Positions 1-39,817 of a stretch of DNA of 39,817 bases are shown here, one piece after another (positions within the stretch are counted from its first letter, which is position 1; every line of letters starts with the position of its first letter). A model generated the notes under the pieces. The model did not search any database and was not told the origin of the DNA. It saw only the letters and a program-made list of their open reading frames with translations. The stretch lies in the sequence record MT808983.1. The stretch is one strand, 5' to 3'. This DNA is from Escherichia phage TM1. A program made the translations under genes and the position numbers.

Positions 1-179
1 TCACAGTTCAAGAACCTCAAGTCTCCCCATAGGCCCTCTTTTAGTCCAGACCAAAGGCCCTACCCCAGTCTATCATAAGGTGGGACCGATGGTCAAGACT
101 TCAGGTCAACGATAGGTTGAGGCTATGGCTGGAGGTCGGGACGATAGGTAGGGACTATGGGTCTGCCTCTAAGTCCCTA
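1..179. repeat. Left direct terminal repeat (DTR), identical to 39639-39817
   Basis: First 179 nt (tcacagttcaagaacctcaag...ctaagtcccta) recur at the extreme 3' end of the window; T7-like phages have terminally redundant linear genomes. Confidence 0.85.
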
Positions 180-215
180 TCTGTATAGTGTTATAGTATA
201 ACATTACGTCCTACA

Positions 216-6119: not shown

Positions 6120-6160
6120 ACTCAAGGTCATGACTCAAAGTCGTGGCCTTCATGATTAAC
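6118..6160 (+). ncRNA. Conserved leader hairpin, candidate RNase III processing site (R1.1 position)
   Basis: agactcaaggtcatgactcaaagtcgtggccttcatgattaa; one of three copies of a conserved AGACTCAAGGTCAT...GGCCTTTATGATTA element. Confidence 0.5.
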
Positions 6161-13450: not shown

Positions 13451-13498
13451 AGACTCAAGGTCATTCACATCGATTGGCCTTTATGATTAGACTAAACG
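13451..13498 (+). ncRNA. Conserved leader hairpin, candidate RNase III site (R4.7 position, upstream of DNA polymerase)
   Basis: agactcaaggtcattcacatcgattggcctttatgattagact; second copy of the conserved element. Confidence 0.5.
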
Positions 13499-20588: not shown

Positions 20589-20607
20589 ACTATCACTATA
20601 GGAACAA
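20584..20607 (+). promoter_or_regulatory. Phage-RNAP promoter (taaACTATCACTATAGGaac), phi9 position
   Basis: Family consensus; the portal stop codon TAA lies at promoter positions -17 to -15. Confidence 0.8.
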
Positions 20608-20677
20608 CGTCTGGTCTACAATTTGTAGGTTTCTAGTCCCGTTGTTCCTACCATTTCAATCAAAGGAGAATGACTCA

Positions 20678-36290: not shown

Positions 36291-36345
36291 TGTTAGACTC
36301 AAGGTCATTACTATATGTAGTGGCCTTTATGGTTAACACTAAGGA
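36291..36345 (+). ncRNA. Conserved leader hairpin, candidate RNase III site (R18.5 position)
   Basis: tgttagactcaaggtcattactatatgtagtggcctttatggttaacac; third copy of the conserved element. Confidence 0.5.
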
Positions 36346-37186: not shown

Positions 37187-38946
37187 GTAAAGACTTAGTG
37201 GCGCGTCAGGCGCTAATGACTGCACGTATGAAGGCAGACTTCGTGTTCTTCCTGTTCGTCCTGTGGAAAGCTCTGTCACTCCCAGTCCCGACTCGCTGTC
37301 AGATTGACATGGCGAAGAAACTATCGGCTGGGGACAACAGGCGTTTCATCCTACAGGCGTTCCGTGGTATCGGGAAGTCCTTCATTACGTGTGCCTTCGT
37401 GGTCTGGAAACTATGGAACAACCCAGACTTGAAGTTCATGATTGTGTCGGCCTCAAAGGAACGAGCCGATGCTAACTCCATCTTCATCAAGCGAATCATC
37501 GACCTCATGCCTCAGCTTCAGGAACTCAAACCTAAGCAGGGCCAACGAGATGCGGTTATCAGCTTCGACGTTGGACCAGCCAAACCAGACCACTCACCTT
37601 CGGTTAAGTCCGTTGGTATCACTGGTCAGTTGACTGGTAGTCGTGCTGACATACTGATTGCCGATGACGTGGAGGTTCCGAACAACTCAGCGACTCAGGC
37701 TGCTCGTGACCGTCTGTCAGAGCTTGTGAAAGAGTTCGACGCTATCCTGAAGCCTGGAGGTACAATCATCTATCTGGGTACTCCTCAGAACGAGATGACC
37801 CTGTATCGTGAGCTGGAAGGTCGTGGGTACACAACTACTATCTGGCCAGCTCGTTATCCACGCGATAAGAAGGACTGGCAGTCCTACGGCGACCGTCTGG
37901 CTCCTATGCTTCAAGCAGAGCTGGAAGAGGACCCTGAGTCCTTCTACTGGCGTCCTACTGATGAAGTACGCTTCGATGATACTGACCTGAAGGAACGTGA
38001 GCTGTCCTATGGTAAAGCTGGCTTCGCTCTCCAGTTCATGCTTAACCCGAACCTGAGTGATGCCGAGAAGTACCCTCTGAAGCTACGTGACCTTATCGTA
38101 GCAGACTTGGACCCAGCGTCAAGCCCAATGGTCTACCAATGGTTGCCGAACCCTCAGAACAAGCGTGAGGACGTTCCTAACGTTGGACTCATGGGTGACT
38201 CATACCACACGTATCAGACTGTAGGTTCTGCCTTCAGTTCGTACACCCAGAAGATTCTGGTCATTGACCCTAGTGGTCGTGGTAAGGATGAAACTGGTTA
38301 TGCGGTACTGTATCAGCTCAACGGCTACATCTTCGCTATGGAAGTTGGCGGTATGCGGGGTGGTTATGAAGACTCTACGCTTGAAGCCTTGGCTAAGATT
38401 GGTCGTAAGTGGAAGGTCAACGAATACGTCATTGAGGGTAACTTCGGTGATGGTATGTACCTTGAGCTATTCAAGCCTGTAGCGGCCCGTATCCATCCTG
38501 CGGCTGTAACTGAAGTGAAGAGTAAGGGTCAGAAAGAACTCCGCATCTGTGACGTTCTGGAGCCTATCATGGGGTCTCACCGACTTATCGTCAACGCTGC
38601 TGCTATCGTCCAAGACTACCAGACAGCCTCTGACAAGGATGGTGTTCGTAACCCTATCTACTCTCTCTTCTATCAGATGACCCGTATCTCTCGTGAACGT
38701 GGAGCCTTGGCACACGATGACCGACTTGATGCGCTGGCTATCGGTGTACAGTTCTTCGTTGAGTCTATGGCTAAGGATGCCAACAAAGGAGAACGTGAAG
38801 TCACTGAGGAGTGGCTGGAGGAACAGATGGAGAACCCACGGAAAGGCTTCGAGTCCATCCACACTGAGTTCTGGGACAATGGGGTCCGGGTAACTCACGA
38901 TACGGACGACGAGATGGGTCTAGGGTCCTACGTTACGTTCCACTAG
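37183..38946 (+). CDS. gp19: Terminase large subunit (T7 gp19 homolog, 587 aa)
   Basis: [29 protein letters not shown]...[20 protein letters not shown]...[17 protein letters not shown]...[11 protein letters not shown], collinear with T7 gp19; apparent TTG start 7 nt after AGGAGG, overlapping the spanin stop. Confidence 0.96.
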
Positions 38947-39040
38947 CTGAATGAATAACTATGGGTGAAAGCTGCATGAATACGCAGTTAGTAACCTATA
39001 GTTACTACCAGTCTAACCTACTGTTTTACAAGGAGTTTGG

Positions 39041-39064
39041 ACTTAACTATCACTATAGGGAAGA
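39041..39064 (+). promoter_or_regulatory. Phage-RNAP promoter (ttaACTATCACTATAGGGaag) near the right end (phiOR position)
   Basis: Family consensus; predicted +1 G at 39058; T7 has a promoter at the equivalent right-end position. Confidence 0.8.
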
Positions 39065-39242
39065 CCCCCGGTTACTTATAGTATTACTGTAGTGAATATA
39101 CATATGCAGACTTTATGCAAGACCTTAGGAGGCAGACTCCGAGTTCTTACCTAAGGCTTGCACCGATGGAAGGAGGTGATATTAATCATAATACCTCCAA
39201 TACAGATAGTCACCGACCATAGATACAGGAGGTATGTAGCAT

Positions 39243-39401
39243 ATGGCAAAGACCAAAGCTGTACTTAAAGCTCTGGCGACCAATCGAGCTACATACAGGT
39301 TTCTTGCTGCTGTTCTACTTGCTGCTGGCGTTACTGCTGGAAGTCAGTGGGTCGGGTGGGTCGAGACTCTCGTATGTTCTCTGGTGTCTGAGTGTCATTA
39401 A
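39243..39401 (+). CDS. Small hydrophobic protein (52 aa), gene 19.5 position
   Basis: ATG after AGGAGG (long spacing); MAKTKAVLKALATNRATYRFLAAVLLAAGVTAGSQWVGWVETLVCSLVSECH; last ORF before the right DTR. Confidence 0.45.
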   Translation: MAKTKAVLKALATNRATYRFLAAVLLAAGVTAGSQWVGWVETLVCSLVSECH

Positions 39402-39551
39402 CGCCGTAATGGTAACAATCAACGAAAGTAAGACCTAAGGTCAGTTCATAGCTGACGCTACTCTACTGACCTTAGCTACTGTAGTCAAGGACTTTAGGTA
39501 ACACCTTAAGAGAAGCTCACTTAGGGTCATCCTACTTATTGGTCTATCCTA

Positions 39552-39589
39552 GTGTCACCTGACCTACGGTCCTTGACCTACAGTAGCTG
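39552..39589. repeat. Array of 3 CCTAC(A/G)GT octamers just inside the right DTR
   Basis: CCTACGGT at 39552-39559, CCTACAGT at 39566-39573 and 39582-39589; same motif as the left-end array. Confidence 0.65.
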
Positions 39590-39638
39590 CCACCTACAGT
39601 CTTCGATGAGTTTTGGACCAAAAGTTTGAGACCACATC

Positions 39639-39817
39639 TCACAGTTCAAGAACCTCAAGTCTCCCCATAGGCCCTCTTTTAGTCCAGACCAAAGGCCCTA
39701 CCCCAGTCTATCATAAGGTGGGACCGATGGTCAAGACTTCAGGTCAACGATAGGTTGAGGCTATGGCTGGAGGTCGGGACGATAGGTAGGGACTATGGGT
39801 CTGCCTCTAAGTCCCTA
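39639..39817. repeat. Right direct terminal repeat, identical to 1-179
   Basis: Sequence tcacagttcaag...ctaagtcccta matches the first 179 nt of the window. Confidence 0.85.

Follow-up and report, generated by a model that had tools for sequence, protein, structure and literature searches.

What is the function of a perfect 11-bp inverted repeat that lies between the last small gene and the terminal repeat of a T7-like phage genome? The repeat, designated here as H1, is found near the right end of Escherichia phage TM1 (MT808983.1), whose entire sequence of 39,817 bp (the window) was analyzed. H1 is unannotated in all of the records that we examined. In a preliminary description, the repeat was considered as a possible site of RNA processing, as a palindrome bound by a protein or as a structure related to packaging.

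The window is the complete genome of a T7-family podophage of the K1F-like type (Kayfunavirus), with all of its genes on the plus strand. Bases 1-179 are an exact copy of 39639-39817, and the genome thus carries direct terminal repeats of 179 bp. The right end displays 94-97% identity to those of K1F-like Kayfunavirus phages. Within the last 900 bases, the elements are arranged in the order of terminase gene 19, phiOR, gene 19.5, H1 and terminal repeat (Table 1), which matches the annotation of EcoDS1. The phiOR promoter is annotated at the homologous site in EcoDS1, T7, T3, BA14 and K11, and is nearly invariant in an alignment of 31 Kayfunavirus sequences. Concerning H1 itself, we confirmed the presence of a perfect 11-bp repeat (CTAAGGTCAGT/ACTGACCTTAG) and the position of its right arm (39465-39475). 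The left arm had previously been placed one base too far to the left (39434-39444 instead of 39435-39445), and the spacer, described as 20 nt, is 19 nt (39446-39464). H1 starts 34 nt past the stop codon of gene 19.5 and ends 164 bp before the right terminal repeat, in agreement with its initial placement after the last small ORF and before the right-end repeat.

Table 1. Positions of H1, of neighbouring elements in the window and of comparable hairpins in other T7-like phages (window coordinates unless another genome or contig is named).
Feature	Position	Strand	Basis or remark
ATCTGTA at the boundary of repeat and unique sequence	179-185	+	'concatemeric junction' of EcoDS1 at homologous 177-184
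RNase III-type hairpins, GACTCAAGGTCAT..GTGGCCTT(T/C)ATGATTA	6124-6150, 13457-13481, 36301-36327		two conserved G.U wobbles and a lower stem
Large terminase gene 19	end at 38946	+	order as in EcoDS1
Phage RNA polymerase promoter, phiOR equivalent, ACTTAACTATCACTATAGGGAAG (CACTATAGGGAAG)	39041-39063, +1 at 39058	+	sequence
Gene 19.5 homologue, 52 aa, small membrane-type protein	39243-39401	+	gp19.5 annotated in EcoDS1
H1 left arm, CTAAGGTCAGT	39435-39445		perfect 11-bp inverted repeat
H1 spacer, 19 nt, with upper stem TAGC/GCTA (39450-39453/39458-39461) and TGAC loop	39446-39464		fold
H1 right arm, ACTGACCTTAG	39465-39475		perfect 11-bp inverted repeat
H2, long imperfect inverted repeat, arms 39474-39499/39562-39588	39474-39588		~26 bp, 2 mismatches and 1 bulge, 62-nt interior
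AGTCAA box, GTAGTCAAGG	39483-39488	+	conserved across genera with differing hairpin sequences
Pre-repeat box with AAAAGTTTGAGACC and small palindrome TTTTGGaCCAAAA (39611-39623)	39604-39638		near 100% conserved
Right direct terminal repeat, 179 bp	39639-39817		identical to 1-179
T7 hairpin, AGGGATTCAGCGGTATGATTGCATCACACCACTTCATCCCT, AGGGAT..ATCCCT	about 39569-39609 of T7		centre 189 bp left of repeat
T3 hairpin, T7 architecture			four compensatory changes relative to T7
K11/KP32 hairpin, AGGGAT..ATCCCT, top longer			fold
BA14/Berlin hairpin, AGTGATTATGG..CCTATAATCACT			fold; variant L081 compensatory
L068/L069 hairpin, further class, AATTACTAT..ATAGTAATT			IMG/VR locus scan
L082 hairpin (IMGVR_UViG_2974592438), arms CCTTAAGGTC..GACCTTAAGG	2682-2730 of contig		IMG/VR locus scan

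In the predicted structure of H1, the lower stem of 11 bp is separated by an asymmetric internal loop from a short upper stem of 4 bp. The lower stem cannot be extended, as it is bordered by C/C outward and T/T inward. Folded as DNA, the plus strand gave a free energy of -11.2 kcal/mol (z=-5.0) and the minus strand -13.4 kcal/mol (z=-6.3). Folded as RNA, the corresponding values were -20.5 kcal/mol (z=-5.1) and -24.1 kcal/mol. Folding had been proposed as a check of the repeat, and H1 folds stably in both forms, with z-scores overall of about -5 to -6.

As a repeat alone, H1 is not significant. In dinucleotide shuffles of the window, 0.38 perfect inverted repeats with arms of 11 bp or longer and a loop of 3-40 nt were expected per shuffle, and 28.5% of the shuffles contained at least one; the window contains two. 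Approximately 0.4 such repeats are expected by chance in a genome of this size, which would be in favour of a fortuitous repeat. The significance of H1 derives from the fold z-scores of about -5 and, above all, from the conservation and covariation in relatives described below. The other perfect 11-bp repeat with a short loop, at 20599-20650 (TAGGAACAACG..30 nt..CGTTGTTCCTA), is the only one in the genome besides H1. Its start falls in the initially transcribed sequence of a phage promoter (TATCACTATAGGAACAACG), and the transcript would thus carry a stem-loop in its 5' leader, resembling in this respect the leader of T7 gene 10.

A second, long and imperfect inverted repeat (H2) directly abuts H1, beginning at its last bases. 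The region comprising H1 and H2 has fold z-scores of -4.1 as DNA and -4.65 as RNA. H2 is shortened or lost in EcoDS1 and in loci L007/L008, L010 and L032, and is thus less conserved than H1. A long inverted repeat abutting the hairpin distinguishes the K1F-type phages from T7, in which a shorter hairpin occupies a comparable site, about 110 bp from the terminal repeat.

Both arms of H1 were identical in every Kayfunavirus locus examined (K1F, EcoDS1, SH3/SH4, GW1, Salmonella and Enterobacter phages, and IMG/VR contigs). The spacer, on the other hand, occurred among the relatives in at least eight versions with lengths of 19, 21 or 23 nt. When 31 distinct Kayfunavirus sequences were aligned, the 22 arm positions were 100% conserved while conservation of the spacer positions dropped to 45-60%. 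The block at 39476-39504 was at least 87% conserved in the same alignment. In an alignment of 23 sequences, none of the 22 arm positions was variable, compared to 25 of the 52 positions in the spacer and the 33 nt upstream (Fisher P=2.2e-5). A lack of conservation in relatives had been named beforehand as a result that would speak against the element; the arms turned out to be invariant in 23-31 distinct relatives. A scan of viral contigs anchored downstream of the arm revealed no new arm variants, only contigs already known. A metagenome scan was carried out with the 15-mer TGTAGTCAAGGACTT, an anchor too short for specificity, and almost all of the 120 rows obtained were chance matches; among these rows, the element was found only in L201, with an identical hairpin.

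The position of the hairpin was also informative. K1F and SH4 harbour insertions of 78-120 bp between the 19.5 stop codon and the hairpin (L004 576-683; L012 571-723) that are absent in the window. In spite of these insertions, the distance from the hairpin to the terminal repeat is kept (~183-186 bp). As the hairpin maintains a constant distance to the repeat and not to gene 19.5, H1 can be regarded as a part of the right-end block rather than of the gene.

We found sequence changes that preserve the pairing in both stems. Citrobacter phage CR8 (genus Caroctavirus) has the left arm TTAAGGTCTGT, and arms TTAAGGTCTGTA/TACAGACCTTAA are located at the same place. Relative to the window, its lower stem displays two double changes that preserve pairing, C:G to T:A and A:T to T:A. 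The upper stem occurs in the versions TAGC/GCTA, GTG/CAC, GTGG/CCAC and GTAGG/CCTAC, all with pairing kept, and at alignment columns 20/33 a switch between GC and AU is seen in 6 of 14 sequences. Over the 14 distinct sequences, 95.2% of the cells are standard pairs and four pairs have changed on both sides. The observed pairing or covariation score was not reached by any of 500 shuffles (0/500), and sliding the partner columns lowered the pairing to only 21-47%. Judging from these alignments, a chance origin of H1 is ruled out by conservation, covariation and the positional equivalents in several genera described below, and H1 is a real hairpin under strong selection. With a spacer that is variable in length and internally paired, an extruded hairpin is favoured over two half-sites on a straight duplex. 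A palindrome of the operator type would have a fixed half-site spacing and an unstructured spacer, neither of which is seen in H1. The protein-binding palindrome of the preliminary description is thus disfavoured in its simple duplex form, with a spacer of 19-23 nt that contains a covarying stem of its own.

H1 was rejected as an intrinsic terminator. There is no T/U run past the stem (the sequence there is CTACTGTAGTCAAGG), and no terminator-like site (0) was detected in 38900-39817, in accordance with the earlier remark that the repeat, without a U-tract, is not an obvious terminator. ATCTGTA at the junction would have the role of a class II signal of the kind known for T7 RNA polymerase. 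The class II pause/termination signal CJ of T7 belongs to the same right-end/junction machinery as H1, but is a short linear signal (ATCTGTT) that acts on RNA polymerase and involves no inverted repeat. H1 has no such motif; in the window, the equivalent of CJ is the junction sequence at 179-185, away from the hairpin. It is thus extremely improbable that H1 arose by chance or serves to terminate or pause transcription by the RNA polymerase of the phage or of the host.

In other T7-like phages, we folded the sequence that separates gene 19.5 from the terminal repeat, and equivalents were searched for in 80 diverse IMG/VR loci retrieved by terminase alignment. A hairpin was found that starts 18-34 nt past the 19.5 stop codon and has its centre 145-216 bp left of the repeat, with stem sequences that are unrelated (Table 1). 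The IMG/VR loci confirmed the classes seen in the named phages and contributed L081, L068/L069 and L082. The hairpins of T3, K11/KP32, BA14/Berlin, CR8 and L068/L069 are positional orthologs of the T7 element, with compensatory changes that maintain the structure. For T7, T3 and K11, a MAFFT alignment placed the hairpins with a register shift of one column that was not consistent with their structures, and compensatory changes were read from the folds instead. In more distant contigs (terminase identity of 66% or lower), an AGTCAA-linked hairpin was not clear, the hairpin of L082 apart. L082 is a distant T7-like contig with ~50% terminase identity and a hairpin at the equivalent place, and its arms indicate that stems of the TAAGGTC type are not confined to Kayfunavirus and CR8.

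The sequence AGTCAA lies 5-9 nt past the hairpin in every class other than L082 and gh-1, and is present as AGAGTCAAG in T7, AGAGTCAAC in T3, ACAGTCAAT in K11, GAAGTCAAC in BA14, TAAGTCAAG in CR8 and AGAGTCAAC/GTAGTCAAG in L068/L069. The occurrence of a hairpin at the same place together with AGTCAA in several genera indicates that the element is a conserved feature of the subfamily (Studiervirinae) and not a peculiarity of the window. Two candidate functions for the box were discarded. We considered a sigma-70 -35 element (TTGACT on the minus strand), but T7 does not have an acceptable -10 element at the right distance. In the window, TTGACT together with TAGAGT inside the hairpin provides a 9/12 sigma-70-like match (39488->39460), which is probably coincidental. 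A primase site was rejected, as NAGTC does not fit the canonical T7 sequences GGGTC/TGGTC/GTGTC. GTCAA-type motifs recur across the terminal regions.

The element of T7 with which H1 can be compared is the M-hairpin. Its region is reportedly the subject of studies by Chung, Nardone and Hinkle in 1990, Kim and Chung in 1996, and Kim, Kim and Chung in 1997, and the first of these is said to have described a T7 hairpin end as a probable processing intermediate. The tip of the M-hairpin is, as we presume, ~190 bp left of the junction, which agrees with the T7 inverted repeat at about 39569-39609. We infer that this repeat, which at 30 nt past gene 19.5 is the obvious candidate for a neighbouring hairpin, corresponds to the published M-hairpin site, although T7 contains several inverted repeats between phiOR and the terminal repeat, and 'adjacent to gene 19.5' could denote another one.

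T7 and the window share the order of phiOR, 19.5, hairpin, short repeats and right terminal repeat. The inverted repeat starts 30 nt past the 19.5 stop codon in T7 and 34 nt past it in the window, and its centre is 189 bp and 184 bp left of the terminal repeat, respectively. In both phages AGTCAA follows the hairpin, and the minus strand folds better than the plus strand. The stems themselves differ; that of T7 (AGGGAT..ATCCCT) is an interrupted stem of 15 bp, whereas that of the window is a perfect 11 bp with an upper stem of 4 bp. As expected of an M-hairpin, H1 occupies a right-end site between 19.5 and the repeat and is predicted to form a stable hairpin in single-stranded DNA. Taken together, these comparisons make H1 most likely the K1F-group equivalent of the T7-type right-end hairpin (the M-hairpin region).

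Two articles provide a functional background. The T7 M-hairpin adjoins gene 19.5 and its deletion is stated to impair concatemer processing, while a deletion of 19.5 plus M is viable (PMC2680503), suggesting that the element is helpful rather than essential. Hairpin DNA with the terminal repeat occurs in T7 infection, according to PMC4281155. Among the three options initially offered, the packaging-related structure is thus the best supported, through the positional equivalence of H1 to the hairpin beside T7 19.5 and the literature on the M-hairpin.

Does the element act as DNA or as RNA? When 11 representative hairpins were folded with DNA parameters, the minus strand was at least as stable as the plus strand in all of them (11/11; sign test P=0.001, with lineages that are not independent). 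Free energies of the minus and plus strands were -13.4 and -11.2 kcal/mol in the window, -11.1 and -7.2 kcal/mol in T7, -8.9 and -6.8 kcal/mol in T3, and -10.5 and -7.9 kcal/mol in K11. In the remaining seven hairpins, the minus strand was more stable than the plus strand by 0.2-1.1 kcal/mol, so that the asymmetry is small outside the T7/T3/K11 class, and it is likewise small in the K1F class. The higher stability of the minus strand in T7, T3 and K11 is due to A.C mismatches on the plus strand that are G.T wobbles on the minus strand. The minus strand of the hairpin region is not transcribed from any phage promoter. The minus-strand bias obtained in these calculations hints at a hairpin that forms at the level of single-stranded DNA.

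An RNA role has to be weighed against this. Since the region is transcribed from phiOR and from all of the late promoters, H1 could act as a stem-loop in the plus-strand RNA, as a cleavage site of host RNase III or as a block to 3'-5' exonucleases, defining or stabilizing the 3' end of the phiOR/19.5 and late transcripts. The RNA fold is stable, as given above, and a few of the Kayfunavirus spacer variants permit a possible plus-strand G.U (G.T) pair. A stabilizing 3' hairpin would also fit the report that 19.5 RNA is the most abundant late transcript of T7 (bioRxiv 10.1101/647024). In addition, the GenBank record of phage gh-1 contains a stem-loop in the same position, between the last small gene and the terminal repeat and ~75 bp from the latter (NC_004665 37000-37069), annotated as 'R13; putative RNase III recognition site'. 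R13 differs from H1 in its greater length, in its G.T/G.U pairs on the plus strand and in the lack of an AGTCAA box, and its RNase III label is by prediction only.

The RNase III sites of the T7 group (R0.3 ... R18.5) are, like H1, hairpins in transcribed intergenic regions, and the arms of H1 share their AAGGTC/GACCTT core. The window itself harbours three hairpins of the canonical type (GACTCAAGGTCAT..GTGGCCTTtATGATTA; Table 1), in which a lower stem is present and two G.U wobbles are conserved. They are probable RNase III processing sites according to their sequences, the last being equivalent to T7 R18.5. Ten T7 RNase III sites, at the coordinates reported by Dunn and Studier, all folded as expected and displayed the same pattern. 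H1 does not follow it. The extended consensus (CTCAAGGTC..GGCCTT(T/C)ATGATT, with internal loop and lower stem) is represented in H1 only by AAGGTC/GACCTT. H1 lacks the CTCAAGGTC..GGCCTTTATGATT sequence, the G.U wobbles and the additional lower stem of these sites; its own lower stem is entirely Watson-Crick and its fold is not one favoured on the plus strand. It measures ~15 bp in total and is located after the last gene, not before a gene. The plus-strand A.C mismatches of T7, T3 and K11, which become wobbles only on the untranscribed strand, also argue against an RNA function, as does the absence of any relevant Rfam match for H1, sub-threshold hits included. To our knowledge, there is no mapped RNase III site after 19.5 in T7. 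We thus consider the RNA role unlikely. The RNA processing site suggested initially retains the analogy with the annotated stem-loop of gh-1, but lacks the T7-type RNase III pattern.

The third possibility is that H1 is mainly a sequence-specific protein site within the packaging signal. It would be a putative pacB-like site bound by the small terminase gp18 or by another phage protein such as gp19.5, and would be read either as a hairpin/cruciform or as half-sites together with AGTCAA. The arms are fully invariant within the genus even though pairing alone would tolerate compensatory or wobble changes; an invariance that exceeds the need for pairing suggests that a protein recognizes the sequence as well. 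The adjoining AGTCAA is a conserved single-sequence motif within the conserved block 39476-39504, and stem sequences that are specific to each genus are as expected for packaging specificity. In T7, the Pac signal is given as PacB, bound by gp18, and PacC, cut by gp19 (PMC9860248). However, spacers of 19 to 23 nt would change the phasing of the half-sites on duplex DNA, and the covarying stem inside the spacer points to an extruded structure. As the main function of H1, a protein site is quite unlikely. It overlaps with a role in DNA processing and does not exclude it; DNA-level, RNA and protein-site roles are not mutually exclusive.

A DNA-level role in concatemer processing or packaging is the function that H1 probably has. 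H1 would act as DNA and not as a terminator, with single-stranded DNA of the region, probably of the minus strand, folding back at the repeat during concatemer processing. A concatemer junction contains one terminal repeat, and yet two genomes each need one. In the mechanism that we envisage, transcription from phiOR would pause where the junction signal marks the right edge of the repeat. After a nick at the junction, DNA polymerase would synthesize leftwards through the repeat and displace the old bottom strand. Once the inverted repeat is reached, the newly made strand of bottom sense would fold back on itself and copy its own repeat, generating a hairpin-capped end that holds a second copy of the terminal repeat. 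Terminase would then cut at the repeat boundaries. H1 would function in this process along with phiOR, the AGTCAA box, the pre-repeat box and the junction pause site ATCTGTA. Our data demonstrate that the proposed fold-back site exists, is conserved and has a strand bias, and that the other signals are present; we infer the steps of nicking, fold-back and resolution from the T7 literature.

In a broader and more tentative form, H1 and AGTCAA together would be a cis-element present throughout the subfamily that has not been described comparatively. The hairpin in minus-strand single-stranded DNA would be the turn-around point of leftward displacement synthesis from the junction nick, duplicating the repeat, and the genus-specific stem may aid packaging specificity. 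We regard this proposal as possible rather than probable. If it is true, the unsolved duplication of the T7-like terminal repeat becomes directly testable, and the natural covariation can guide compensatory mutagenesis. T7-like phages are widely used in phage therapy, display and synthetic genomes, whereas the cutting of their concatemers and the duplication of the repeat are still only modelled. The hairpin represents a defined cis-element to be kept, or tested, in synthetic genomes of the K1F/T7 type, transducing particles and plasmids with packaging signals. For the window itself, the results are largely confirmatory, as H1 is an unannotated but expected part of a T7-type right end. On the level of the subfamily, selection maintains the hairpin at the 19.5 side across several genera, with genus-specific stems, shared AGTCAA and bottom-strand bias.

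Several further features were noted at the right end. The pre-repeat box directly adjoins the right terminal repeat on the left side, and AAAAGTTTGAGACC within the box resembles AAAAATCTGAGTGAC of T7 and the equivalents in T3, BA14 and gh-1 just left of their repeats. The box is probably the left-end cleavage or recognition site. Hardly any variation occurs in Kayfunavirus at the left boundary of the repeat and over the preceding 35 nt (39604-39664), while few sequences of the region vary as much as the interior and right part of the repeat (39665-39817).

The nucleotide sequence of gene 19.5 (39243-39398) is almost invariant among the Kayfunavirus relatives, synonymous sites included. Variable third codon positions numbered 9 of 52 in gene 19.5 and 132 of 199 in the adjacent terminase gene (P=1.7e-10). 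The conservation of synonymous sites suggests either an overlapping cis-acting constraint, perhaps a packaging signal, or a recent sweep. Several GenBank records (e.g. Salmonella phage CHRF_10037, L007 593-682) call small ORFs for a 'hypothetical protein' over the hairpin and terminal repeat. These ORFs are probably spurious, annotation artefacts in a non-coding, cis-acting region.

Finally, the three canonical T7 primase pentamers GGGTC, TGGTC and GTGTC (39524-39528, 39540-39544 and 39552-39556) are clustered within 33 nt in the loop of H2, on the top strand. The same three pentamers are present in the homologous stretch of T7, and the last primers of the lagging strand ahead of the terminal repeat may be determined by this cluster.
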